Assembly (NCBI GenBank): GCA_963677485.1
Contig: OY781964.1
Location: 3,200,001-3,264,000 of the forward strand
Length of the DNA stretch: 64,000 nt
Direction of reading: 5' to 3'
Source: Armatimonadota bacterium
GTDB lineage: Bacteria > Armatimonadota > HRBIN16
The notes under the pieces: generated by a model
The model's input: the letters and a program-made list of their open reading frames with translations, nothing else
Databases searched by the model: none
What the model was told of the DNA's origin: nothing
Position numbers and translations under genes: made by a program
In this document: in pieces, positions 2,646-26,432 of the stretch
Position numbering within the stretch: the stretch's first letter is position 1
Layout of the letters: each line of letters opens with the position of its first letter

Positions 2646-4631
2646 ATGAGAAGAGCGATCTTGGCACTGCTGCTTGGTGTGTTTTGCGCATCCGCCAGCG
2701 TGCAGTCGGCGGAGCCAAAATTCCGCGACATCTACCCCGATACCTGGGTGGGTTCGGATGCATTAGGACGAACCATGCCAACTATCGAGCAGGTTGGTCC
2801 TGTGAAGAAGGACCAGCGCCGCGTGGTGGGCATGTACTACATCACCTGGCACCGTGATGTGAACAAGAATCTGAAGAGCCCATACGGTGGCGATGTCTCT
2901 AAAATCCTCGCGCAAGACCCCTCGGCACGGCTCGATGCGAAGAACCCGTTGTGGAAGGAGTTCAGCTACCACTGGGGTGAGCCAGAGGATGGGTATTTCC
3001 TGAGCAAGGATGAGTATGTTATCCGTAAAGACATGTCGATGCTGGCCGATGCCGGGGTGGATGTGATTATCCTGGATGTCACCAATGCGGTCGAATACTG
3101 GGACGAGTGGAGCGTGCTGCTGCCCCTGATGCAGAAGATGAAGGCGGAAGGCATCAAGGTGCCCAAGTTCTGCTTCTGGGCCTTCAACGGGCCCGTGATC
3201 ACGGTGGTGCAGGACCTGTATGAGACCATCTACAAGCCCGGCTTGTATAAGGACATGTGGTTCTATTGGGATGGTAAGCCGCTGCTTCTGTATAACAACC
3301 TGGGCGTGAATGACGTCGGCGGTAAGCTGGTCAGTCCAAACCATCATTACGATCCCAAAGCCAAAACCGACCCAAATAATCCTCACTACGGTGACCCAGA
3401 CTTCGCAGAAGAGTTCTACCAGGACTACACCAAAGAGGTGAGGAGTTTCTTCACCACGCGCACTATGTGGTGGGGCTACCATATGTGGGCAGGCAAGCGG
3501 TTCCTCGGCACCGAAGATAACTGGGCATACGGATATGAGCTGCTTGACGCCAAAAACCGTGGGATGAACCCTGACGACCTGCTCTCTACCCATAAAGGAG
3601 TTAAGGAACAGGCGGCCGTCACCGCCGCCCAACACGCCATCTGGGGTGCCGGGAAAAGCTGGTCACGCAAAACATACGATCCCAAATTGAACGACCAAGA
3701 TCTTCCGGTGCCAACCTATGTGCCGTGGCTGGGCAAGACGGTGGAGCATCCTGAGGGTTACGGCATCTATTTCCAGGAACGCTGGGATGAGGCGATCAAG
3801 TCCAAGCCGCAGTTCCTGTATGTGAATGACTGGAACGAATGGACCGCCATCAAGTTCCCGACCCCCAATGAACCGCCGTCGATCACACCGTTCTTGGGCC
3901 GTCAGAACCCGTATTTCTTTGTCGACCAGTATAACGCGGAGTTCAACCGCACCATCCAGCCCATGAAGGGTGGGTATACGGACAACTACTACATGCAGCT
4001 CGCGCAGAACGTGAGGCGGTATAAGGGCGTCCGTCCGATTCCTGTGGTGCGTGGATTGGCCACGATGAATATCGACGGTAAATATACCGACTGGAACAAA
4101 GTGAAGGTGGAGTATCGCGATACATTGGGTGATGTGGCCCATCGTGACTATCCAGGCTACGCCGGCGCGCACTATGTGAACACATCGGGCCGCAACGACA
4201 TCATGACCAGCAAGGTGGCAGTCGATGGCAAGGTTGTCTACTTCTATGCTCAGACCAGCAAACCGCTGACACCCTCTAGCGGTAAAAACTGGATGCTGCT
4301 GTTGATCGACGCTGACAAGAACCCCAAAACCGGCTGGTACGGCTACGACTACCTGGTCAACCGCAGCGTGTTAGACAAGAATAAGACCATCATCATGAAG
4401 TACAAGGGCAAGAATTGGGTGAATGTGGCCAAGCTAGATTATCGCTACTCCGGCAAATCCCTGGAGCTGGCGATACCTCGCTCGCTGCTGGGTCTGAAGG
4501 GCAACTCCCTCAGCTTCGACTTCAAATGGGCGGATAACCCGGCGGATTTGAAGGACCCCATCTCGCTATGCATCAACGGTGACACCGCGCCGAACCGGCG
4601 GTTCAATTACCGCTGCATTTGGCAGAGGTAG
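2646..4631 (+). CDS. Secreted putative glycoside hydrolase (GH99/GH71-like), paralog 2
   Basis: Same motifs as paralog 1; AAGGAG RBS; signal peptide. Confidence 0.75.
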   Translation: MRRAILALLLGVFCASASVQSAEPKFRDIYPDTWVGSDALGRTMPTIEQVGPVKKDQRRVVGMYYITWHRDVNKNLKSPYGGDVSKILAQDPSARLDAKNPLWKEFSYHWGEPEDGYFLSKDEYVIRKDMSMLADAGVDVIILDVTNAVEYWDEWSVLLPLMQKMKAEGIKVPKFCFWAFNGPVITVVQDLYETIYKPGLYKDMWFYWDGKPLLLYNNLGVNDVGGKLVSPNHHYDPKAKTDPNNPHYGDPDFAEEFYQDYTKEVRSFFTTRTMWWGYHMWAGKRFLGTEDNWAYGYELLDAKNRGMNPDDLLSTHKGVKEQAAVTAAQHAIWGAGKSWSRKTYDPKLNDQDLPVPTYVPWLGKTVEHPEGYGIYFQERWDEAIKSKPQFLYVNDWNEWTAIKFPTPNEPPSITPFLGRQNPYFFVDQYNAEFNRTIQPMKGGYTDNYYMQLAQNVRRYKGVRPIPVVRGLATMNIDGKYTDWNKVKVEYRDTLGDVAHRDYPGYAGAHYVNTSGRNDIMTSKVAVDGKVVYFYAQTSKPLTPSSGKNWMLLLIDADKNPKTGWYGYDYLVNRSVLDKNKTIIMKYKGKNWVNVAKLDYRYSGKSLELAIPRSLLGLKGNSLSFDFKWADNPADLKDPISLCINGDTAPNRRFNYRCIWQR

Positions 4632-4993: not shown

Positions 4994-6973
4994 ATGCGAA
5001 ATCTATGTGTCATGGCGATAAGCCTTCTATGCTTGTCTGCAGGGGTTCTCTCTGCCGCACCCGCCGTGCGTGACATCTACCCAGATACCTGGGTGGGTAG
5101 TGATGCTCTTGGCCGGGCAATGCCCACCCAGGAGCAGACGGGTCCGCTCAAGCGGGACCATCGGCGTGATGTCGGCATCTTCTATGTCACCTGGCACACG
5201 GAAAACTTCAAGGGGCTGCCCAGCCCATACACCGGTGATGTCACGGAGATATACCGTAAGGACCCCAGTGCGCGTCTTGATGGCAATAACCCGTTGTGGC
5301 AGCATGGCATGTATCACTGGGGGAAGCCTGAGATAGGCTATTTCCTGAGCCAGGATGAATATGTGATCCGTAAAGATATGTCCATGCTGGCTGATGCGGG
5401 CGTGGATGTGGTGATACTGGATGTCACCAATGCCGTGCGCTACTGGGAAGAGTGGGAGGTGCTCCTCCCCGTGATGCAGAAGATGAAGAACGAGGGCAAC
5501 AAGGTGCCGCGGTTCTGCTTCTGGGTGTTCAATGGAGATGCCATCCGGGTAGTGCAGGAACTGTATGACCGAATCTACAAAGACGCCAGGTTTAAGGATC
5601 TATGGTACTACTGGGACGGCAAGCCGCTGTTGCTTTACAATGCCAGCCCGGCCACAGATGCCACCGGCTCCGTTCCGGTCAACAAAAACCTGTATTATGA
5701 CGCGAAGGCCAAGACCGATCCCAGCAATCCCCATTTCGGCGACCCAAAGTACACCACAGAGATACTCACCGACTACCCAGATGATATCAAGAGCTTCTTC
5801 ACCACACGCAACATGTGGTGGGGGTATTACGAGTGGGCGGGCAAGCGGTTTGTGGGCACAGAGGGGAACTGGTCGCTTGGTTATGATCTTGGTGATAAGG
5901 CCGTGCAGAAGATGAACCCGGTCGATCTGGCTGCGACCTGGAAAGGCAAACGCGAGGAGGTCGCGGTCGCACCCGGGCAGCACTCGCATACGCTCATCGG
6001 CAAGAGCTGGAGCCGTGAGCAGGGGGAGCCGGAGCTGAACGAATACGACCTGCCGACAAAGGCGTTTGTGCCATGGCTGGGCAAGACGGTGAAGAACCCT
6101 GAAAACTACGGTATATACTTCCAACAGCGGTTTGACGAGGCGTTAGCGGCCGACCCTCAGTTTATGTATATCAACGACTGGAATGAATGGACCGCAGGCA
6201 AGTGGAAGTGGGAGAGCGGATTTATGCGACGCCCCATCAGCAACTTTGTGTTCATCGACCAGTATAACACCGAGTTCAACCGCACCATCCAGCCCATGGA
6301 GGGCGGATACACCGACAACTACTACATGCAGATGGCACAGAACATCCGTAAGTATAAGGGAGCCCGTCCGGTGCCGGTGAACAGAGGTATCAGCCCGATC
6401 CGTATCAACGGCCGGTTTGACGACTGGAATGCGGTCAAGGTCGAATATCGTGACACCATCGCCGATGTGTTTCATCGCGACCATCCGGGTTATGGGGAGC
6501 CGAAAATCACCAACAACTCCGGCCGGAATGATATCATCACCAGCAAGCTGGCGGTGGATGACCAGAACCTCTATTTCTACGTGCAAACAAGCAAGACGAT
6601 GAGTCCTCATAGCGACCCGAACTGGATGTTGTTGCTGATTGATGCAGATCAGAACCCCAACACCGGCTGGTATGGATATGACTATCTCATCAATAAGCAA
6701 GTTTTGGGAGACGATGTGACGACGATCTGCCGGTATCAACCCGGCCAGCCAGAGCCGTGGCAGGTGGTGGGTGAGTTGAAATACCGTGTCTATGGCGCGA
6801 AGATGGAGCTGGCGGTGCCTCGCGCCTTGCTGGGTCTGAAGGGCAGCAGCTTCACGTTTGACTTCAAGTGGGCGGATAACCCGGCGGACCTGAAAGACCC
6901 GATCTCGCTGTGCCTCAACGGCGACACCGCCCCCAACCGACGGTTCAACTACCGCTGTATTTGGCAGAGGTAG
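4994..6973 (+). CDS. Secreted putative glycoside hydrolase (GH99/GH71-like), paralog 3
   Basis: Same motifs; GAGGAG RBS; signal peptide. Confidence 0.75.
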   Translation: MRNLCVMAISLLCLSAGVLSAAPAVRDIYPDTWVGSDALGRAMPTQEQTGPLKRDHRRDVGIFYVTWHTENFKGLPSPYTGDVTEIYRKDPSARLDGNNPLWQHGMYHWGKPEIGYFLSQDEYVIRKDMSMLADAGVDVVILDVTNAVRYWEEWEVLLPVMQKMKNEGNKVPRFCFWVFNGDAIRVVQELYDRIYKDARFKDLWYYWDGKPLLLYNASPATDATGSVPVNKNLYYDAKAKTDPSNPHFGDPKYTTEILTDYPDDIKSFFTTRNMWWGYYEWAGKRFVGTEGNWSLGYDLGDKAVQKMNPVDLAATWKGKREEVAVAPGQHSHTLIGKSWSREQGEPELNEYDLPTKAFVPWLGKTVKNPENYGIYFQQRFDEALAADPQFMYINDWNEWTAGKWKWESGFMRRPISNFVFIDQYNTEFNRTIQPMEGGYTDNYYMQMAQNIRKYKGARPVPVNRGISPIRINGRFDDWNAVKVEYRDTIADVFHRDHPGYGEPKITNNSGRNDIITSKLAVDDQNLYFYVQTSKTMSPHSDPNWMLLLIDADQNPNTGWYGYDYLINKQVLGDDVTTICRYQPGQPEPWQVVGELKYRVYGAKMELAVPRALLGLKGSSFTFDFKWADNPADLKDPISLCLNGDTAPNRRFNYRCIWQR

Positions 6974-7215: not shown

Positions 7216-9189
7216 ATGAGAAGAGCGATCTTGGCACTGCTGCTTGGTGTGTTCTGCACATCAGCAAGCGTGCAATCGGCGGAGCCGAAAATCCGTGACA
7301 TCTACCCTGACACCTGGGTGGGTATTGATGCCATTAACCGGACGATGCCTACCTATCAACAGGTTGGTCCCGTCAAAAAAGACCAGCGGCGTGTGGTGGG
7401 GATATTCTATATCACCTGGCATACCAATAACTACAAGGACATGAAAAGTCCATACCTGGCTGATGTGTCCAAGGTTCTGGCCAAAGACCCTAGTGCCCGC
7501 CTGGATGGCAACAACCCTGGCTGGACCGAAGGCAGCTACCACTGGGGTGAGCCTGAGATGGGCTATTTCCTCAGTCAGGATGAGTATGTGATTCGCAAAG
7601 ATATGTCGATGCTGGCCGATGCCGGTGTGGATGTGCTTGTGATGGACGTCACCAATGCTGTTCGGTATTGGGACGAGTGGAATGTGCTGTTTCCCATCAT
7701 GCAGAAGATGAAGGCCGAAGGCACGAAGGTACCGAAGTTCTGCTTCTGGGCTTTTAATGGTCCATGCATCACCGTGGTGCAGGACCTATACGAAAAAGTC
7801 TATAAAGTGAACAAGTATAAAGACCTGTGGTTTATGTGGGACGGAAAGCCGTTACTGTTATACAATGGTTCACCCGCTTCCGATGCCAATGGCGGCGGTG
7901 TGCAGAATCCAAACCCCAACTATGATGCCGCAGCGAAAACTGATCCGAACAACCCGCATTACGGAGACCCTGACTACACCGAGGAGTTCTACAAAGACTA
8001 CACCAAAGAGGTGAAAAACAGCTTCACCTTACGCTCAATGTGGTGGGGATATGACAGTTGGGCCGGTAAGAAGTATGTCGGCGGCGAAGACAACTGGAGC
8101 TTCGGATATGATCTAGGCGATGAGAAGAATAAGGTCAAGAACCCTATCGACCTGGTTTCAACTCACAAAGGCAAGAAAGAAGAAGCCGCAGTGACCCCTG
8201 GACAGCACCCTTCGAGTCTGATCGGCAAGAGCTGGACGCGCGAAAAGGGTGAGCCACAATTAAACGACCATGACCTCCCTGTGCCGACCTATGTGCCATG
8301 GCTGAAGAAGACTGTGAAGAACCCGGAAGCTTACGGCATCTACTTCCAGCAGCGATGGGATGAGGCGATCGCCGCTAATCCGCAGTTCCTGTACATCAAC
8401 GACTGGAACGAGTGGACGGCTGGGAAATACCCAACCACCGGCGAGTTCATGCGCCGCAAAAACCCCGGATATTTCTTTGTGGACCAGTATAACGCCGAGT
8501 TCAACCGCTGCGTCCAGCCCGTGAAGGGTGGTTATACTGACAATTACTACATGCAGATGGCTCAGAACATCCGACGATATAAGGGTGTTCGCCCGATCCC
8601 TGAATTGAAGGGACTGTCGAGCATCAAGCTGGACGGAAACTTCGCCGACTGGGTAAAGTCGAAAGTGGAATATCGAGATACCGCAGACGATGTATTCCAT
8701 CGTGACCATCTAGGTTACGGCGGTATCCGCTACACCAACGACTCCGGCCGCAATGACATCATCACCAGCAAAGTGGCTGTAGACAGCAAGATGGTCTACT
8801 TCAATGCTCAAACCAGCAAGCCATTGACGCCATCTTCAGATAAGAACTGGATGCTTCTGTTGATCGATGCTGACAAGAACCCCAAAACCGGCTGGTACGG
8901 ATATGACTACCTGATCAACCGCAGCGTGTTGAACTCCAACAAGACCACCATCATGAAGTATAAAGGCAAGAACTGGGTGACGGTGGGCAAGCTAGACTAC
9001 CGGTATGCAGGTAAGGCGCTTGAGCTGGCAGTGCCTCGTGAGCTGCTGGGTCTGAAGCGCAATAGCTTTGCGTTTGACTTCAAATGGGCAGACAATCCGG
9101 CTGATCTGAAGGATCCCATCTCGCTGTGCCTCAACGGTGACACCGCACCGAACCGACGGTTTAACTACCGCTGTATCTGGAGTAAGTAG
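7216..9189 (+). CDS. Secreted putative glycoside hydrolase (GH99/GH71-like), paralog 4
   Basis: Same motifs. The RBS and start of the signal peptide are identical in DNA to paralog 2. Confidence 0.75.
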   Translation: MRRAILALLLGVFCTSASVQSAEPKIRDIYPDTWVGIDAINRTMPTYQQVGPVKKDQRRVVGIFYITWHTNNYKDMKSPYLADVSKVLAKDPSARLDGNNPGWTEGSYHWGEPEMGYFLSQDEYVIRKDMSMLADAGVDVLVMDVTNAVRYWDEWNVLFPIMQKMKAEGTKVPKFCFWAFNGPCITVVQDLYEKVYKVNKYKDLWFMWDGKPLLLYNGSPASDANGGGVQNPNPNYDAAAKTDPNNPHYGDPDYTEEFYKDYTKEVKNSFTLRSMWWGYDSWAGKKYVGGEDNWSFGYDLGDEKNKVKNPIDLVSTHKGKKEEAAVTPGQHPSSLIGKSWTREKGEPQLNDHDLPVPTYVPWLKKTVKNPEAYGIYFQQRWDEAIAANPQFLYINDWNEWTAGKYPTTGEFMRRKNPGYFFVDQYNAEFNRCVQPVKGGYTDNYYMQMAQNIRRYKGVRPIPELKGLSSIKLDGNFADWVKSKVEYRDTADDVFHRDHLGYGGIRYTNDSGRNDIITSKVAVDSKMVYFNAQTSKPLTPSSDKNWMLLLIDADKNPKTGWYGYDYLINRSVLNSNKTTIMKYKGKNWVTVGKLDYRYAGKALELAVPRELLGLKRNSFAFDFKWADNPADLKDPISLCLNGDTAPNRRFNYRCIWSK

Positions 9190-17798: not shown

Positions 17799-19955
17799 TG
17801 AGGGTTCTTTTTAACGCAATGGCGCAAGGATGCAAAGGGGTTGTTGGTATTCAACCGTGTGTAGGGGCAACCCCCTGTGGTTGCCCTGTTCTATGGTGGG
17901 GCATCATGTGCGCTGCCCACGGGATGTGTGAACCGCGGATGAACGCGGATAAACGCGGATGGGGAGGGGTTCTGTCCGCTGTCGCCTCATCGGTCGGATT
18001 CGACCAATCCGTCCGATGAATCCTCACCAAAACAAGCGACGCCCCCATGGTAGCTATGCCCCCTAAGGGCGTCCGCTGGATACCTCTATGCTTGCCTGTT
18101 TGGGCGCCTTTAAGTTAAAAGCCCTTCTGGTCACAAAACGTCACAGACCATACCATCAGCTACAACCAGTAATTTTGGTAACAGTCCTTTATACCGATAT
18201 AACATGAATCACAAACTGCAGGTATACTGATGGTTGATATGTTTTTGTTGCCCTGGTGTATCTAGATAAAGGTAAAGGAGCCACTATCGTGTATTGGAAG
18301 ACCAACCGTGCTAATTGGATTTTTGTCCTAAGCTTCGTATTTGCGCTGATGCAGCTTATCACGTGCCAAATCGCGTTTGCACAAGGCGGCACTATCGACG
18401 GCTGGGGTGATAGGCGCATAGCCTCGGGTGATCTCACTGGCTTCAAAGCAGTATCGGCAGGCTATGCTCATACCGTTGGTCTGAAACGCGACGGCTCGGT
18501 GGTCTGCTGGGGATTGAACTCATCTAGCAAATGCAGTATACCTGCACCTAACCAGGACTTCACCGCCATAGATGCTGGAAACTACTATTCCGTCGGTTTG
18601 AAGCGCGACGGCTCGGTGGTTTGTTGGGGTGATAACTCATATGGTCAGTGCAGTGTGCCCGAACCCAACCAGGATTTCATCGCTATCGCAGCAGGAGATC
18701 AGCATACAGTCGGTTTGAAACGTGACGGTTCCGTAGTCTGTTGGGGCTTTAACAGCTACAGCCAGTGCAATGTGCCTGCTCCTAACCTGGATTTTATAGC
18801 CATCGCGGCAGGAGACTGCTATTCCGTCGGTTTGAAGCGCGACGGCTCGGTGGTTTGTTGGGGTGCTAACACATACAGTCAGTGTAGTGTGCCCGCACCC
18901 AACCAGGGGTTCACAGCCATCGCAGCAGGCGGGCAGCACTCTGTCGGCTTAAAGAGTGATGGTTCGGTGGTCTGCTGGGGTTACCAAGATTACCGCCAGT
19001 GCAATGTACCCGCACCCAACCAGGATTTTACTGCCATCGCTGCAGGCTGGCATCATACTGTCGGTATTAAGCGTGACGGTTCCGTGGTTTGCTGGGGTGA
19101 TAATGACGAAAATCAATGTAATGTGCCTGCACCCAACCAGGATTTCGCCGCCATCGAAGCAGGAGGGCGGCATACCGTCGGCTTAAAGCGCGATGGTTCT
19201 GTAGTTTGCTGGGGTGATAATGACGATTTCCAATGTAATGTGCCCGCACCCAACCGAGACTTCATCGCCATGGTCACGGGTGCAAAACATACCGTCGGAC
19301 TGAAGATTGATGGTTCGGTGGTTGGCTGGGGTGACAACTGGTATGGTGAGTGCGATGTGCCTGCACCCAACCGAGACTTCATCGCCATCTCTGCAGGTAA
19401 TAGTTACACCGTCGGCTTGAAGAGTGACGGTTCAGTGGTCTGCTGGTATGATAACTCATATGGTAAGTGCAGTGTGCCCGAACCCAACCAGGATTTCATC
19501 GCTATCGCAGCAGGAGATCAGCATACAGTCGGTTTGAAACGTGACGGTTCCGTAGTCTGCTGGGGCAGTAATTCTGAGGGTCAATGCAATGTACCCGCAC
19601 CTAACACGGATTTCGTCGCCATCGCGGCAGGATACAACTACAGCGTTGGGTTGAAGCGCAACGGATCAGTCGTCTGTTGGGGTTATAACTACAACGGCCA
19701 GTGTGATGTGCCCTCGCCTAACATGGATTTCACCTCCATCGCGGCTGGTCGGTTCCATACCGTAGGCCTGAAGAGCAACGGTTCGGTGGTCTGCTGGGGG
19801 CCTTCCTATCTCAGTCAATGCAAGGTGCCTGAGCCCAACCAGGATTTTACCGCAATTACGGCGGGTATTTGGCATACCGTCGGACTGAAGAGGGATGGCT
19901 CGTTGGTTAGTTGGGGTGATAACGAATGGGGCCAGTGCGATGTACCTTCACCTAA

Positions 19956-21611
19956 GGCGGCTTAGCCGCAACCAAAAAAGGAATGATTGCATTCGCCACG
20001 TAATATACATTCAAACACCCTTTCGTGAGGTTGCCCAGAATGACATCACTTCAAGAACGCTATGCAAAGCAGATAGCTGGGGTATATTCATGCTTCGACC
20101 GCATAGTTATCACCGGTACAATCCCAGGCTGGTGTCATAGCGACGGAATGGGCATCTATCTTCATCAACGCAACATCAGGCTATTTGACTTTCCTAAGGA
20201 ATTTGCCGAACCTCTACGAGATGAGATCAAAGCCAATGCGGAACGCCTTGCCGTTACCAACAGCATTGAAATTGAGTATATACGCCGTGCCTCTTCATTT
20301 CGAAAAGAAGACCGCATCAAAGAGATCATTAGTAGTCGAGGGTGTCACCCCGGTCTCGTCCACATATTCTCAGTGTTGGAAAAATGTCCTGCATACACCC
20401 CGTGGCACGACAAGATTACCCACAAAACCCGGCTGAATATCAAGGAGACCAAGTGTCTTCATTACTACTTCTATTTCATCGATGCAGAGTTTGGACTGTG
20501 CTATCTACGAGTTCCGACCTGGGTGCCCTTCCGTCTGCAATTCTATTGTAATGGACACAATTATCTCGCGCATTGCCTTCAATCCGAGGGAGTAGTTTTC
20601 ACTCCACTGGACAACGCCTTTGTAAAAATCGACGACTTTAGCTGTGCTCAGAGGCTGGCAGACGCTTTTCCTGCTGATAAGCTGCACCATGCGCTGGATG
20701 CATTTGCCAGAATGTATTGCCCCGTGATACGGCTTGCTGACAATTCATATCATTGGTCGCTAATGCAGGTGGAATATGCTACAGACATCGTGTTCAAACG
20801 CGCCGAAGACCTCAAAGCCATCTACGATAATCTAGTCAAAACAGCGATACATACGGTAACGCCAGAGTCTATCGCGATGTTTCTTGGTAAGAAACTTGAT
20901 GGGCGAACACTCGCTGAGATCGGCACTGACTACAAGTTCGATCGCCGCATACAAGGCACGCGCATCAAACACTACATGGGATGGGCTTCTATCAAAATGT
21001 ATGACAAGCAAGGGATAATCTTGCGTATCGAGACGACTGTGAATGACGTCTCTGAATTTAAACACTACCGTGAGGTAGAACATCATGATGGGACGACTGA
21101 GATTAAATACGCCCCTATGCAAAAGACCATCTACAGCCTTCCTCCATTGAGGGAACTGTTATTATCTGCAAACAACAGATATCTTGACTTTCTTTCCGCC
21201 CTTGATGACAACAGCGATGGTGAACATCAGATCATCAAAATCGCGACCTCGACCACCCGTGATCATCGCTCGTATCGAGGATTCAACCTTTTCCTCAAGA
21301 AGGATTTGGAATGTCTCATTGCACTTGCTCGCGGAGAGGGATGCATCAGCGGGATCACAAACCGTATGCTTCAAAAAGCCTTACCGCAGATGTCCAGCTC
21401 TCAGATATCATACTTCATCAAGCGATGCCGAGTATTCCGGCTCGTTAAAAAATGCGGTAAACGCTACAAATACTACCTCACTGCACTTGGCAAGCGTATC
21501 ATCATGGCAGCACTTGCTATTCGCCAGATCGTTGTGCCTAACGCTTTGTGTGGTGCGTAATATCAGAATATTCTATACACCGTGTTCAAAATATGGTTGG
21601 TAAGATACTAA
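19956..21611 (+). mobile_element. 1656-bp insertion element, copy 1 (unclassified; target ACCTAA^C)
   Basis: Reads the same as 24651-26306. Its boundaries are defined by two different flanks and by exact restoration of the host ORF. CTAA is present at both junctions. Confidence 0.92.
20040..21560 (+). CDS. Putative transposase of the insertion element (Rep_trans-like motifs plus C-terminal winged helix)
   Basis: Only long ORF in the element. The ATG at 20040 follows GAGG (alternative GTG at 20025). Motifs SCFDRIVITG, QVEYATD and IKMYDK...LRIETT; wHTH-like C-terminus. Confidence 0.8.
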   Translation: MTSLQERYAKQIAGVYSCFDRIVITGTIPGWCHSDGMGIYLHQRNIRLFDFPKEFAEPLRDEIKANAERLAVTNSIEIEYIRRASSFRKEDRIKEIISSRGCHPGLVHIFSVLEKCPAYTPWHDKITHKTRLNIKETKCLHYYFYFIDAEFGLCYLRVPTWVPFRLQFYCNGHNYLAHCLQSEGVVFTPLDNAFVKIDDFSCAQRLADAFPADKLHHALDAFARMYCPVIRLADNSYHWSLMQVEYATDIVFKRAEDLKAIYDNLVKTAIHTVTPESIAMFLGKKLDGRTLAEIGTDYKFDRRIQGTRIKHYMGWASIKMYDKQGIILRIETTVNDVSEFKHYREVEHHDGTTEIKYAPMQKTIYSLPPLRELLLSANNRYLDFLSALDDNSDGEHQIIKIATSTTRDHRSYRGFNLFLKKDLECLIALARGEGCISGITNRMLQKALPQMSSSQISYFIKRCRVFRLVKKCGKRYKYYLTALGKRIIMAALAIRQIVVPNALCGA

Positions 21612-22260
21612 CAAGGGTTTCACCGCCATCTCCGCATCGGAATATCATACAGTTGGAATCCGCGGTGTTCAGTCAATCGACGGAAAGCTGCAACTAGGGC
21701 AATTCTTGGGCAGTATTACTGCGCGGCAGCTCACAGCTTCTATCAGCAATACAGCTGACTCCAGCAGTACTCAATGCCTCAGTATAAACCCTCAGGCTAA
21801 CGGTGAATACTCCCTCTCCACCTACCTTTTACCACCATATAGTCTTCGTGTCAGCAGCCCGCACTTCCTCACTGCGAAGGCGACCAATGTGGGCATCGGG
21901 CAACGCGTCAACATCATTCTCACTAACGGCGACGTGGATGGTGACGGCCAAATCAATCTGTTTGATATGGTGGCTCTAGATTCTAAATTCGGCTCCTCAG
22001 ATACCATTGCCGACCTTGATGGTGATGGTATAGTCAACCTGTTTGACTATGTAGTCATCGATCAGAACTTCGGTGCGCAGGGTGATTGATCACAAGCACT
22101 ATCTGATGCAAGCGAAGAGAAACCCGCTAGGGGTGACTCTATGACGGAGTGTCATATCACCCTCCAGCTTAGGAGTGAGGCCTGCTCTCCCTTGCCGTTG
22201 TTTAGTATTGGAGAGCTCATCATATATAGGTACTAAGTGCGTTTGCCGGACGCTCTACGC

Positions 22261-23439
22261 TCACGGCTGATTGACCACGCCCGTGAAGAGTATCTCGCCG
22301 GTGGGATCGTGCCGTATGAGAAACACGAACGGCCGGTTGAACTTGATTTTCGGTGGATTTGGAGAGATGCCCAACATCATGCCAATCCCGGAAGCCGCGG
22401 AAGCGACCGTGCCTCGCTCATTCACTTCAACCATGCATTTTTGTTTCGCTTCGCCAATCCAGAGGTCTTGAGACACTCTTGCCAGCATGCCGCTAAAATC
22501 GGCATGTGCCCCAAACGGCAACGGCATGCCCATTTTGGTAAGCGGTGGGATCAACTTGGTCTCTACATCCATCTTGAACCTGGGTAACGAGAGCTCCGCA
22601 TGACTGGTATCAAGGTTAGCCACCATATCGTGAAGTGCCTTGCCAGTCAGGATGCCCAAGAGCTTCTGGGGAGAGGAATTCGGAGCCGGCAATATAAGAT
22701 ACATCGCTAGCGTCTGCTGAAGTTGCATGATTTTTCGAAAGCCTTCGCTGCTAGTCGTGCTTCCTGGTTTGATTGCTGAGGCGAGGCGGCTAAGGTTGTA
22801 TGGCAGTCGGACCATGTCATACTTACTGGTCTGGGAAAACCCCATGTCCTCATCTTTACACATGTAGGTAGCAGTCGACCGCTTACCCTCGCTGCCATAC
22901 CAGACCGCTTTGACGTTTGCTTTCGGGTTGAACGGGTCTAGCCACTCGCCATGGAACAGCACCGTGTTGATGATGATCATCGCTATCTGTGAATCGATGC
23001 TGTCATACATCCGATTGATACGTCCATTAGTGTTTTTCGTCACCCACTGGTTAATCAAGTTCACAGTCTGGCGATCATGTAGATCAACCGTGTTCACCGG
23101 TGCGTGATACACGCTGTTCACTTTACGGGCATATCCTGGATCAAGACGATAGAGTTGGTGCAGCCACAATGAGTTTGCGACCAGCATTTCCGCTGGTGTC
23201 AGAGCACCACTGATTTGCCTGATAGTCTTCACGTTGCTTTGGTTCACTTGTTCGATAGAGCTGCTGCCGAAACCCAGCACCTTCGTCATCTGGCGGAGGG
23301 TTTCACCCCGGGCCCCGTTCAGCGTCATGCTGAGCGCGATGCGGGCGCTGTAGGGCGAGAGGCACAGGTTCTGACCGTCTTGGTTGCACTGCTGAGTGAG
23401 CCTCAGCGCGAAGTCGGACGATGCGTAATTAGGCTGCAT
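22261..23439 (-). CDS. Serpin (serine protease inhibitor)
   Basis: NLCLSPYS...ALSM..NGARGET, INTVLFHGEW..PF, LPRFK, hinge EVNERGTVASAAS, FNRPFVFLIRH..TGEILFTG.V.QP. Confidence 0.95.
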   Translation of the reverse strand: MQPNYASSDFALRLTQQCNQDGQNLCLSPYSARIALSMTLNGARGETLRQMTKVLGFGSSSIEQVNQSNVKTIRQISGALTPAEMLVANSLWLHQLYRLDPGYARKVNSVYHAPVNTVDLHDRQTVNLINQWVTKNTNGRINRMYDSIDSQIAMIIINTVLFHGEWLDPFNPKANVKAVWYGSEGKRSTATYMCKDEDMGFSQTSKYDMVRLPYNLSRLASAIKPGSTTSSEGFRKIMQLQQTLAMYLILPAPNSSPQKLLGILTGKALHDMVANLDTSHAELSLPRFKMDVETKLIPPLTKMGMPLPFGAHADFSGMLARVSQDLWIGEAKQKCMVEVNERGTVASAASGIGMMLGISPNPPKIKFNRPFVFLIRHDPTGEILFTGVVNQP

Positions 23440-24650
23440 ATTGAAACCCCTCTACTTTTCTATTAAAGCGTCCAGGCGCCCTACGCTTGCGGTTGGTTGA
23501 CCACGCCTGTGAAGAGAATCTCGCCGGTGGGATCGTGCCGTATGAGAAACACGAACGGCCGGTTGAACTCCAACTTCGGTGGATCTGGATTGATTCCCGC
23601 TATTGTCATCAGGCCGGAAGCCGCGGACGCGACCGTGCCTCGTTCATTTACTCCAAGCACGCATTTCTGTTTGGCTTGATCGATTTCGATCGGGCTGGCC
23701 ATTTTGGTAAACATGCCGCTAAAATCGGCATGCTTCTCAAACGGCAACGGCATACCCATTTTCGACAGCGGGGCGATAAGGTCAGTCTCCACTTCCATCT
23801 TGAACCTGGGCACTGACAGCACTACATGACCAATATTCAGGCCGTCGATCATCTGGTCTAACGAAGGACCGGTTAAGCTGTTCAGGAGCTTCTGGGGCGA
23901 GGATCCTGAAGCGGGCAATATCAAATACATCGCTAGCGTCCTGTTCAGCTGCATTGCTTGATGTAATGTTTCACCAGTTATACCGCCGGGTTTGATGGTA
24001 ACTGCGAGGCGGCTCAGGTTGTATGGAAGCCTCACCATGGCGTGCGTTTTGGCCTGTGAAAACTCCATATCCTTGTCTTTTTTCATAAAGTTGATGTTTT
24101 GCCGTTTGCCTTTAAAACCATGCCAGGTCGCCTTGACATTTTTCTTGGGATCAAATGGATCAATCCATCCTCCCTGGAACAGCACCGTGTTAAGGATGAT
24201 CAACATCGTCTGTGGGTCAAGGAGGTCATACATCCGTGTGACCCTTCCGTTGGTGCTTTTCGCCACCTACTGGTTGATCGTATTTACAGTACGGCTGTCA
24301 CTCATGCTGACCAAGTTGACAGGGGCATGGTACACGCTGTCGACTCTGCGGGCATAACCGGGATCCAAGCGATAGCGTTGTTCCAGCCACAACGCGTTTG
24401 CCATCAACAGCTCCTGTGGTGTCAGATGGTCACTAATCTGTTTCATGAGCTTCGTATTGCTCTGGTTGATCTGATCGATGGAGCTGCCGCCGAAACCCAG
24501 CACAATCGTCATTTGGCGGAGGGTTTCACCCCGGGCCCCGTTCAGCACCATGCTGAGCGCGATGCGTGCGCTGTAGGGCGAGAGGCACAGGTTCTTGCCG
24601 GTTTCGTAGCATTGCTGCGTGAGCCGTAGGGCGAAATCGGAACTACCTAA

Positions 24651-26306
24651 GGCGGCTTAGCCGCAACCAAAAAAGGAATGATTGCATTCGCCACGTAATA
24701 TACATTCAAACACCCTTTCGTGAGGTTGCCCAGAATGACATCACTTCAAGAACGCTATGCAAAGCAGATAGCTGGGGTATATTCATGCTTCGACCGCATA
24801 GTTATCACCGGTACAATCCCAGGCTGGTGTCATAGCGACGGAATGGGCATCTATCTTCATCAACGCAACATCAGGCTATTTGACTTTCCTAAGGAATTTG
24901 CCGAACCTCTACGAGATGAGATCAAAGCCAATGCGGAACGCCTTGCCGTTACCAACAGCATTGAAATTGAGTATATACGCCGTGCCTCTTCATTTCGAAA
25001 AGAAGACCGCATCAAAGAGATCATTAGTAGTCGAGGGTGTCACCCCGGTCTCGTCCACATATTCTCAGTGTTGGAAAAATGTCCTGCATACACCCCGTGG
25101 CACGACAAGATTACCCACAAAACCCGGCTGAATATCAAGGAGACCAAGTGTCTTCATTACTACTTCTATTTCATCGATGCAGAGTTTGGACTGTGCTATC
25201 TACGAGTTCCGACCTGGGTGCCCTTCCGTCTGCAATTCTATTGTAATGGACACAATTATCTCGCGCATTGCCTTCAATCCGAGGGAGTAGTTTTCACTCC
25301 ACTGGACAACGCCTTTGTAAAAATCGACGACTTTAGCTGTGCTCAGAGGCTGGCAGACGCTTTTCCTGCTGATAAGCTGCACCATGCGCTGGATGCATTT
25401 GCCAGAATGTATTGCCCCGTGATACGGCTTGCTGACAATTCATATCATTGGTCGCTAATGCAGGTGGAATATGCTACAGACATCGTGTTCAAACGCGCCG
25501 AAGACCTCAAAGCCATCTACGATAATCTAGTCAAAACAGCGATACATACGGTAACGCCAGAGTCTATCGCGATGTTTCTTGGTAAGAAACTTGATGGGCG
25601 AACACTCGCTGAGATCGGCACTGACTACAAGTTCGATCGCCGCATACAAGGCACGCGCATCAAACACTACATGGGATGGGCTTCTATCAAAATGTATGAC
25701 AAGCAAGGGATAATCTTGCGTATCGAGACGACTGTGAATGACGTCTCTGAATTTAAACACTACCGTGAGGTAGAACATCATGATGGGACGACTGAGATTA
25801 AATACGCCCCTATGCAAAAGACCATCTACAGCCTTCCTCCATTGAGGGAACTGTTATTATCTGCAAACAACAGATATCTTGACTTTCTTTCCGCCCTTGA
25901 TGACAACAGCGATGGTGAACATCAGATCATCAAAATCGCGACCTCGACCACCCGTGATCATCGCTCGTATCGAGGATTCAACCTTTTCCTCAAGAAGGAT
26001 TTGGAATGTCTCATTGCACTTGCTCGCGGAGAGGGATGCATCAGCGGGATCACAAACCGTATGCTTCAAAAAGCCTTACCGCAGATGTCCAGCTCTCAGA
26101 TATCATACTTCATCAAGCGATGCCGAGTATTCCGGCTCGTTAAAAAATGCGGTAAACGCTACAAATACTACCTCACTGCACTTGGCAAGCGTATCATCAT
26201 GGCAGCACTTGCTATTCGCCAGATCGTTGTGCCTAACGCTTTGTGTGGTGCGTAATATCAGAATATTCTATACACCGTGTTCAAAATATGGTTGGTAAGA
26301 TACTAA
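24651..26306 (+). mobile_element. 1656-bp insertion element, copy 2
   Basis: Same sequence and length as copy 1; flanks aactacctaa | cgcattagccat. Confidence 0.92.
24735..26255 (+). CDS. Putative transposase, identical to 20040-21560
   Basis: Identical translation in the ORF track. Confidence 0.8.
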   Translation: MTSLQERYAKQIAGVYSCFDRIVITGTIPGWCHSDGMGIYLHQRNIRLFDFPKEFAEPLRDEIKANAERLAVTNSIEIEYIRRASSFRKEDRIKEIISSRGCHPGLVHIFSVLEKCPAYTPWHDKITHKTRLNIKETKCLHYYFYFIDAEFGLCYLRVPTWVPFRLQFYCNGHNYLAHCLQSEGVVFTPLDNAFVKIDDFSCAQRLADAFPADKLHHALDAFARMYCPVIRLADNSYHWSLMQVEYATDIVFKRAEDLKAIYDNLVKTAIHTVTPESIAMFLGKKLDGRTLAEIGTDYKFDRRIQGTRIKHYMGWASIKMYDKQGIILRIETTVNDVSEFKHYREVEHHDGTTEIKYAPMQKTIYSLPPLRELLLSANNRYLDFLSALDDNSDGEHQIIKIATSTTRDHRSYRGFNLFLKKDLECLIALARGEGCISGITNRMLQKALPQMSSSQISYFIKRCRVFRLVKKCGKRYKYYLTALGKRIIMAALAIRQIVVPNALCGA

Positions 26307-26432
26307 CGCATTAGCCATTGTTCTTGATAACCTCCTGTGGGTAGTCGTAAAAAACGAGCTTTGCTATTATTGACGCCGGAGAGGGTGGGAATGTTTCCTG
26401 TTTACCATATTCCTATCTGAGATATATGGCCA

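Follow-up and report, generated by a model that had tools for sequence, protein, structure and literature searches.

An apparently undescribed family of insertion sequences with a fixed CCTAA target, present in two identical copies in a stretch of an Armatimonadota genome

What is the segment that occurs twice, letter for letter, in a stretch of an Armatimonadota genome, and how could it have come to lie within two different genes? The stretch analyzed here, the window, comprises 64,000 nt (positions 3,200,001-3,264,000 of contig OY781964.1, assembly GCA_963677485.1), and coordinates below are those of the window unless another sequence is named. Our analyses demonstrate that the segment is a real insertion sequence (IS), apparently belonging to an undescribed family whose transposase is of a class not matched to known families. 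Its mobility, target, ends, crossover register and end-to-end joints, and the breadth of its family, can be read from the comparison of copies. As for the whole, we consider it probable, though by no means assured, that the element is an active, autonomous IS of a very widespread and unnamed family with the fixed site (C/A)CT^AA (the caret marking the crossover), for which we propose nicking and joining by a tyrosine.

Identical copies at unrelated loci

Positions 19950-21612 and 24645-26307 carry the same letters, as the first-pass annotation of the window had noticed, over a span of 1663 nt that includes flank letters common to both sites. Within this span, the element reads AA...ACT, is 1656 nt long and occupies 19954-21609 (copy 1, + strand) and, offset by 4695 nt, 24649-26304 (copy 2, + strand, identical to copy 1). 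The placement follows from the span of identity and the crossover register discussed below; its ambiguity is confined to the shared C-T, within which the exchange point is not placed more finely. The register given originally, 19956-21611, describes an element of equal length. The G+C content of the element is 46.4%, against 55.2% for the window.

Both copies interrupt genes, and removing the element restores both reading frames. The 5' part of a gene of RCC1-like repeats (18256-19953, + strand) reads ...DVPSP up to copy 1, and its 3' part, restarting at 21610, resumes beyond the element in the same open reading frame (ORF) as (N)KGFTAISASEYHTVGI. The second interrupted gene, which holds copy 2 near codon 5, is a serpin paralogue (23481-24648, - strand): in a tblastn search, residues 6-392 of the intact serpin align to 24647-23490 in one frame, with the alignment beginning exactly at the element edge, and the element separates this part from the ribosome-binding site, the ATG (26318-26316) and the first codons. 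The contiguity of the one ORF and the alignment of the other bear out the earlier claim of interrupted genes that regain their frame. The 7-bp word ACCTAAC, which had been taken as the common target, is indeed present at both window sites, but only CCTAA is constant across the copies of the genome, and the identity of the two sites over 7 bp is therefore partly a coincidence.

The genome is a single closed contig of 5,220,040 bp and holds 22 copies, 16 of them 100% identical over 1656 nt, three 100% identical over 1655 nt, two at 99.94% and one at 99.2%; among the 21 copies that are at least 99.94% identical, there is one substitution other than those in the bases of the right junction. The boundaries are common to all copies and the loci are unrelated. 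Since copies occur on either genome strand, sense or antisense to host genes, the element is not an intron; relative to CCTAA, however, all 22 are oriented alike, as expected of the orientation- and target-specific insertion suggested from the two window copies. That one copy might be a misassembly, a concern raised together with that suggestion, is excluded by the contigs of four public sequencing runs, in which the element is ~15-21 times deeper than its flanks and flank contigs extend into the element. The near-identical copies at unrelated loci and the interrupted genes that regain their frame demonstrate mobility.

One occupied site of the genome has a paralogous empty counterpart (...ttttcCCTAA|ccgcgcc, against ...ttttaCCTAA[IS]ccgcgcc in the occupied one). 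This single paralogous empty site in the genome belongs to a copy ending in ACTAA; empty sites for the four copies ending in ...ACTAT were not found there, nor did the same-genus genomes, with flanks just 65-67% identical, provide any. The genome has no extra solo ends or miniature copies: a 24-mer of the left end occurs 21 times, a 24-mer of the right end 20 times and the family-type left end 22 times. At one locus of the element (L017), single contigs of runs X1, X4 and X5 exit the element into unrelated sequence at positions 1584, 2189, 2600 and 2787 of the locus; in those samples, copies may have been truncated or rearranged, or the element may itself have received insertions.

Target word, crossover and ends

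The word CCTAA stands directly 5' of GGCGG... in 22 of the 22 own-genome copies. More broadly, CCT (19951-19953, + strand, at copy 1) precedes 40 of 40 copies in five genomes, 18 of these in the four other genomes, and the left junction always reads CCT-AA; a constant target word, proposed from two sites, thus holds for all own-genome copies and for relatives. The right junction is less uniform. The 22 copies end in GATACTAA (17 copies), GATACTAT (four) or GATATTAA (one), the following base never being G, and among the 40 copies of the five genomes, the two bases after ACT are AA in 30, AT in five, TA in two, CA in two and AG in one. The variation is not that of diverging elements: seven copies in one genome differ at 3 internal positions in 1725 nt, yet have A, T or C directly after ACT, and five copies in another have no variable position in 1668 nt, yet carry G, A or T as the second base. 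Uninterrupted targets are available in an acidobacterial genome (G201, the genome of locus L033; e.g., L114-L123), where the element has repeatedly inserted at a REP-like palindrome, CCTNACGGTCGCGGNTC...GANCCGCGACCGTNAGG. Its 10 uninterrupted sites read CCT-N-A-CGGTCGCGG, with C at N in seven, T in one and G in two, and never CCTAACGG; three occupied sites read ACT-CA-CGG... or ACT-TA-CG.... Because copies that are otherwise identical differ in the bases after ACT, and these bases agree with those of uninterrupted targets, we place the crossover at (C/A)CT^AA. The left AA would then be element-borne and the two bases after ACT target-borne, including the AA at the right junction of copy 1 (21610-21611, + strand), and the right end at the inferred crossover reads hairpin...TAAGATACT^AA.

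This register bears on two simpler explanations of the junctions. The first-pass annotation had noted CTAA at both of them, and CTAA does flank both. It is no duplication, however, and belongs only in part to the element, since what follows ACT is variable. A conventional DDE cut-and-paste IS with a 4-bp CTAA target duplication would explain why CTAA lies on both sides in 17 of 22 copies, and a 1652-bp element with a 4-bp duplication would give the periodicity of 1656 nt. We find it hardly credible, however, as there is no true target duplication: in 5 of the 22 own-genome copies, and in two other genomes in 4 of 7 and 2 of 5, the right side does not repeat the CTAA of the left. Furthermore, the left CTAA falls within 26 nt that are conserved from phylum to phylum, no DDE family matches the protein, and terminal inverted repeats are absent, as claimed before: of the 53 inverted pairs of at least 9 nt, none of the 25 longest links both termini.

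The second explanation, to which the earlier register amounts, is a strict IS200/IS605-like geometry in which an element GGCGG...CTAA sits 3' of an invariant CCTAA and brings its own right cleavage word. It is attractive in that CCTAA precedes all 22 copies, most right ends are ACTAA, and the ends are asymmetric with hairpins. That otherwise identical copies vary mainly at the first or second base behind ACT argues against it, as do the REP-like targets, of which 0 of 10 uninterrupted ones read CCTAA while the occupied ones carry the CA or TA of the palindrome; with no conserved H-hydrophobic-H motif, no Y1 or Y2 match and no lagging-strand bias, we regard this geometry as quite improbable.

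Some of the targets are themselves repeated. Flanks similar to the REP-like palindrome occur at L043 and L048, from other genomes; elements are also found within short tandem repeats that hold the target word, such as (GTACCTAA)n in L055 (~3040-3130), and on an ANME-2 contig (L094, 128-145 and 1805-1830), the element stands among TACC(T/C)AA repeats.

The ends of the element are asymmetric and structured. The non-coding ends are short, 86 and 49 nt. The left end opens with a hairpin, GCGG-CTTAG-CCGC (19957-19969, + strand), with a 4-bp stem and a 5-nt loop. Across 56 distinct left ends of relatives, the stem pairs in 224 of 224 cells, 12 of which are compensatory and fall on two of the four pairs (C-G to U-A or G-C, the window's GCGG/CCGC being one such change); the covariation score is reached by none of 500 shuffles, and controls slid along the alignment pair in at most 50% of cells. 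The hairpin is followed by the box AACCAAA(n)AGG (19970-19982, + strand), whose AACCAAA is invariant in the 56-sequence alignment. The whole arrangement, CCTAA-N-(4-bp stem)-(5-nt loop)-(stem)-AACCAAA, stands upstream of the ORF in 72 of 80 related loci with proteins ~50-60% identical, and the conserved 26-nt block of the left end includes CTAA. The right end (21561-21609, + strand) closes with the ten bases GTAAGATACT at 21600-21609; in 56 sequences, AG and ACT(A) are invariant or nearly so, the consensus being ...A(T/A)nT...(G/T)TA(A/G)Gnn-ACT and the terminus TAAGnnACT being common to related elements. An imperfect hairpin ~22 nt upstream of the right terminus is usual in relatives and weak in the window copy. 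Folded one by one, the right ends have a mean energy of -3.9 kcal/mol, against -1.9 kcal/mol for shuffles, with z<-2 in 15 of 56 sequences that are, however, inter-related, and RNAalifold finds no column-consistent hairpin in them. In copy 2, the left hairpin lies at 24652-24664, the ORF at 24735-26255 and the right end at 26256-26304, all on the + strand.

Right and left ends are also found joined to each other. We scanned metagenome contigs for right ends lying directly against left ends (AGnnACT|AA-N-hairpin-AACCAAA) and obtained 83 joints in 79 stretches; beyond the letters of the pattern, the sequences upstream resemble genuine right ends by eye, with a hairpin and a spacer. Five joints have an ORF on both sides. 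One contig holds two full-length copies, 73% identical, head to tail, with outer junctions CCT|AA on the left and ACT|AC on the right, and another holds three tandem ORF-less units of 211 nt, the first two 99% identical. A left end of the CCTAA type lies upstream of one of the ACTAA type in 26 of 79 loci, 18 times at 64-260 nt and eight times at ~1.2-2.1 kb. The joints, the tandem units and the closely spaced left ends show that the family has miniature derivatives and forms arrays. Head-to-tail arrays are expected because each insertion leaves a perfect CCT^AA at the left edge of the element; they are equally what unterminated rolling-circle copying would give. ORF-less miniatures of ~180-420 nt with family-type ends, arranged head to tail, are seen in L163 (- strand, 6092-6730 and 8711-8930), L187 and L223.

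The protein and the proposed mechanism

The single ORF (20040-21560, + strand) presumably encodes the transposase. It is 506 aa long from the ATG at 20040, as is the cluster representative identical to it; a GTG at 20025 would give 511 aa. Residues are numbered from the ATG and compared in a set of 68 homologues, 28-77% identical. Invariant in all are D20, R21, G105, Y143, Y145, G152, P163, N171, N192, E245, F252, K319, Y321, R329 and E331, and E114 and D249 are found in at least 90%. The candidate catalytic residue is Tyr321 (codon 21000-21002, + strand) in K-M-Y-D-K, invariant together with K319, whereas K323 is present in 67 of 68; residue 322 is a D in 52 homologues and an N in 15. Along K-x-Y-x-K, R-x-E-x-T and Q-x-E-x-A-x-D, conserved and variable residues alternate, a pattern that strands with a single functional face would show. 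Even at 22-25% identity, plasmid-borne relatives retain D-R, Y-x-Y, E245, K-x-Y-x-K and R-x-E.

At the C terminus, at approximately 21300-21540 (+ strand), lies a MarR-like winged helix, which the first-pass annotation had placed after the catalytic region and which is confirmed by the match of the family profile to PDB entry 3bj6 (MarR; E 0.011) and by Pfam matches of the C-terminal region among the 68 members (HVO_A0261_N in 31, HTH_45 in 13). The protein thus seems to consist of a ~400-aa region of an unrecognized family, for which catalysis is predicted, and this winged helix. The catalytic region has no match in Pfam, NCBIfam or PDB when searched with the single protein (Pfam at E<=1), and none in PDB with the family profile. 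The lack of any recognized transposase motif also stood, as no named transposase family was matched in the Pfam, NCBIfam and PDB searches. A match to TBP-TOTE in one of 68 members (E 0.05) was set aside as within chance expectation.

Could the catalytic region nonetheless be related to the Rep_trans initiators of rolling-circle replication? In the available text of PMC5714925, Rep_trans proteins are described with motifs N' (Asp), I (RxD), II (T/SxY/ExG), III (YxKxxE) and IV (W/LxRxE), a D-D-E metal site and the tyrosine on a beta-sheet; the available part of PMC13107129 gives D46, D142, Y191 and E214 for RepDE. In the element protein, D20, E245, K319-x-Y321-x-K323 and R329-x-E331 follow the order of motifs N', I, III and IV (PMC5714925, as available), and the succession acid, acid, tyrosine, acid is that of RepDE (PMC13107129, likewise). 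For motifs N' and IV, D20, R329 and E331 occur in 68 of 68 homologues, with V, I or L two positions before R329, the assignment being one by order alone. The R-x-D of motif I is not matched: the homologues have Q (55/68) or E (12/68), x and E245 (68/68), so that the acid is kept and the Arg and Asp are not. Among the 68, there is no conserved Glu at +5 from Y321, the place of the Glu in the Y-x-K-x-x-E of motif III.

Alignments of Rep_trans proteins made here show matching blocks for the acid, Y-[D/N]-K and R-x-E. When sub-regions are compared locally with hhalign, YDK and RxE are aligned (P 0.002-0.025, probability 2-13%), in a manner unstable once distant homologues are added; windows with YDK take the top five places among 80 window/orientation comparisons with the Rep_trans core, scoring ~22 (22.4) against at most 18.7 wherever the motif region is not matched with its counterpart in the same orientation. 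Of the Rep_trans homology inferred in the first-pass annotation, the motif order acid, acid, YDK, RxE has stood, while support from hidden Markov models or full-length profiles is lacking.

The known members of Rep_trans and MOBT (PF02486: pT181 RepC/RepD, Tn916/ICESt3) share with the element protein an N-terminal Asp, a mid acid, [K/R]-x-Y-[D/N]-K and h-x-R-x-E, as far as the available text of PMC5714925 describes them, and the substrate of the element resembles a nicking site beside a hairpin. They differ from it in motif I, Q-x-E in place of R-x-D, in a catalytic region that is ~2 times longer in the element, and in the absence of profile support; moreover, the element transposes, and no transposition is reported for Rep_trans in the literature found. 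A likeness is also seen to Rep-Arvir (DUF7845, PF25227) of archaeal viruses and plasmids, which, in the accessible part of PMC13107129, has a catalytic region of 300-400 aa, a MarR-like winged helix and a downstream hairpin, and whose link to Rep_trans is visible by structure only. The spacing of its E25, D207, Y283 and E303 is similar to that of D20, E245, Y321 and E331 in the element protein (PMC13107129, same part). Rep-Arvir is a replicon initiator, however, not an insertion sequence. That the element is driven by a tyrosine nuclease of the Rep_trans/TBP fold, outside the HUH class, and would be the first such transposon, is to us a tentative idea, held with more doubt than confidence. Should it be so, the element might be pictured, just as tentatively, as a rolling-circle replicon of 1.65 kb, with initiator, winged helix and hairpin origin, that has turned into an IS.

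In the mechanism that we propose, the tyrosine chemistry, the single-strand or rolling-circle intermediates and the choice of catalytic residues are all inferred. Targets and the left junction would have the site as CCT^AA, the right end as ACT^(A)(A). The protein would recognize the asymmetric ends, that is, the left hairpin with the AACCAAA box and the right hairpin with TAAGnnACT, and its tyrosine would nick one strand after the T at both ends, with acidic residues binding the metal. Joining ACT-3' to 5'-AA would yield a circular or rolling-circle copy with an ACT-AA joint, and the strand would then be transferred into a CCT^NA target. Because the AA would come from the element and the transfer be into CCT^NA, the left junction would always be CCT plus AA and the right one ACT plus the target's two bases.

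A series of results weighs against this proposal. Profile searches give the Rep_trans and Rep-Arvir connections no backing: Pfam Rep_trans (PF02486) matches 0 of 68 members at E<=10 and nothing in the own genome, an unfiltered Rep_trans model ranks the element ORF 337th among 8922 ORFs (-0.3 bits), and full-length hhalign comparisons with Rep_trans reach probabilities of 0.3-1.5% with inconsistent alignments, a different and non-significant alignment being chosen when distant homologues are added; PF25227 has no own-genome match at E<=10, and hhalign against 29 DUF7845 proteins gives 0.5-0.8%. The catalytic region finds no Pfam or PHROGs match on the 68 members, and neither the window protein nor the homologue P0116 has a model in the ESM Atlas, a feature search there leading to unnamed clusters. 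On the DNA side, the end folding energies of the window copy are ordinary (z -1.3 to +0.9), and the flanks of occupied sites are not more hairpin-prone than 1500 random CCTAA sites. The orientation bias reported for single-strand transposons is not seen: the top strand of the element coincides with the G-rich strand in just 7 of 22 copies, or in 8 if the origin is placed at dnaA (two-sided binomial ~0.13), so that no significant replication-strand bias results. The contigs of the four runs show the insertion at L017 in all four and no joint, circle, excision product or empty site, although rare circles or excisions would be invisible in contigs. Finally, a double-strand, site-specific exchange at a CT core would explain the junctions just as well.

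This exchange is the main rival. The IS110/IS1111 elements use a DEDD recombinase, a CT core, a circular intermediate and long element-specific targets, which in IS110 are RNA-programmed. Like them, the element is site-specific, lacks inverted repeats and duplications, has CT at both junctions and forms joints resembling those of a circle. A recombination of this kind, through a circular double-stranded intermediate and with an enzyme of unrecognized, possibly RNase H-like fold, would account for CT being the only part strictly common to both junctions, with the bases to its left and right staying with the target. The precise right-end/left-end joints and the lack of strand bias would equally be expected, and D20, E245 and E331, together with E114 and D249, could form the metal site of another fold. 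On the other hand, neither an IS110-type transposase (DEDD_Tnp_IS110, Transposase_20) nor any other is found among the Pfam families matched by at least two of the 68 members at E<=10. While IS110 targets are specific to each element, here a single 5-nt word is kept by elements from many phyla; the non-coding ends are short; and the invariant K-x-Y-x-K strand would have no role in such chemistry. We therefore consider double-strand exchange unlikely, though it is the alternative to be taken most seriously, and prefer the tyrosine-based transfer.

Family spread and comparison with known systems

Among the single-strand transposons, the IS200/IS605 family is the natural comparison. These small elements move by single-strand "peel and paste" with an HUH Y1 transposase, have asymmetric ends with subterminal hairpins and no inverted repeats or duplications, insert in an orientation fixed by a word of 4-5 nt, and give rise to miniature derivatives. 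The element resembles them in nearly all of this, being small, with hairpin ends, a fixed orientation at a short word, miniatures, and neither inverted repeats nor duplications. It differs in its protein of 506 aa with a winged helix, without an HUH motif or a Y1_Tnp match; in a crossover that lies inside the word (CCT^AA), part of which is element-borne; and in the lack of replication-strand bias. The 68 homologues have no invariant pair of histidines (H141 is found in 78%, H311 in 87% and H173 in 51%), and HUH Y1 and Y2 families are absent among the Pfam families matched by at least two of them. For IS91, the available text of PMC5714925 describes distinct ori and ter ends, a hairpin upstream of the 3' terminus, and no inverted repeats or duplication. 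The element likewise has distinct ends, a right hairpin and precise head-to-tail joints without inverted repeats or duplications, as in IS91/ISCR and Helitrons, which transpose by a rolling circle with HUH Y2 enzymes, but its protein shows no HUH/Y2 motifs or family match, the loci examined hold no captured flanking genes, and the elements of 1.6-1.9 kb contain one ORF; the arrays, too, could come from re-insertion at the regenerated CCT^AA site.

The family is large. At least 7998 relatives of the ORF protein were found (of 8000 candidates scored), and clustering at 50% leaves 6552 representatives with E<=1e-3. None of 120 relatives among the matches listed has a Pfam domain, and most relatives among the matches listed sit on contigs of 1.6-2.4 kb. 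In species-representative genomes, 214 loci were confirmed, and the 80 kept come, by their record names, from more than a dozen bacterial phyla, with two in archaeal metagenome-assembled genomes, one of Bathyarchaeia type and one of ANME-2. The distribution is patchy, which we count as a sign of mobility: within Armatimonadota, 12 of 201 genomes carry the family, and of 17 other genomes of the same taxonomic family, including both of the same genus, none does. The records call the proteins hypothetical, MarR or ArsR, and plasmid homologues "ArsR family regulator" or "hypothetical". The full-text literature, with most subscription journals outside it and ISfinder excluded, yielded no such element, no CCTAA-targeting IS and no Rep_trans-type transposase, and the abstract of the Replitron paper counts only HUH-based Rep transposons; the earlier statement that the element belongs to no named IS family agrees with the libraries and literature searched.

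The family has thus gone unseen by transposase annotation; once it is recognized as an IS, thousands of genomes are to be annotated differently and many breaks in assemblies find an explanation. With a fixed 5-nt target, a 26-nt left end kept across phyla and a mapped crossover, it offers a simple and testable system, and since it is small, needs one protein and inserts at a short, defined word, it may attract interest as a tool as well. If the protein is indeed Rep_trans-like, it would represent a new class of transposases, linking plasmid and viral rolling-circle initiators to transposons outside the HUH world, and a new chemical class beside DDE, DEDD, HUH, serine and tyrosine recombinases, one already present in thousands of bacterial and archaeal genomes under the labels "hypothetical" or "MarR/ArsR regulator". 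If the enzyme has another fold, it would still be an unclassified recombinase.

Two groups of relatives deserve separate mention. A distant clade on plasmids of Rhodococcus, Burkholderia, Paraburkholderia and Mycobacterium (L241-L244, L161) has proteins of 450-570 aa that are 22-25% identical, keep the core residues, are annotated as hypothetical and are multi-copy in some records; one of its loci, L161, is without a CCTAA/hairpin left end upstream. The genome of Bathyarchaeia type (G203, the genome of L063; L126-L129) holds one full copy and several decayed, stop-rich fragments, which suggests older, dead copies in an archaeal genome.

Some observations concern the surroundings of the element. 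The RCC1-like gene contains, at 18469-19938, at least 11 tandem repeats of 117 bp (39 aa), 66-79% identical, and since the P-N codons of several repeats read CCT AAC or CCT AAT, it offers many potential target words. The serpin genes are two tandem paralogues on the - strand (22261-23439 and 23481-24648), 68% identical in protein, and the interrupted one has, in addition, an in-frame stop (24267-24269) in place of a Trp of the intact copy. Elsewhere in the genome, nine identical ORFs of 262 aa (e.g., G000:C1:830584-830910) match the AAA+ part of the DnaA model (E 2.4e-10); we take them to be the helper ATPase of another multi-copy IS, IS21-like. The dnaA gene itself is at 1,204,144-1,204,629 of the genome, whereas the cumulative GC skew has its minimum at ~2.15 Mb and its maximum at ~4.75 Mb and is flat from 1.0 to 2.3 Mb; the gene is thus ~0.95 Mb off the skew minimum, an offset that may come from rearrangement between repeated elements.

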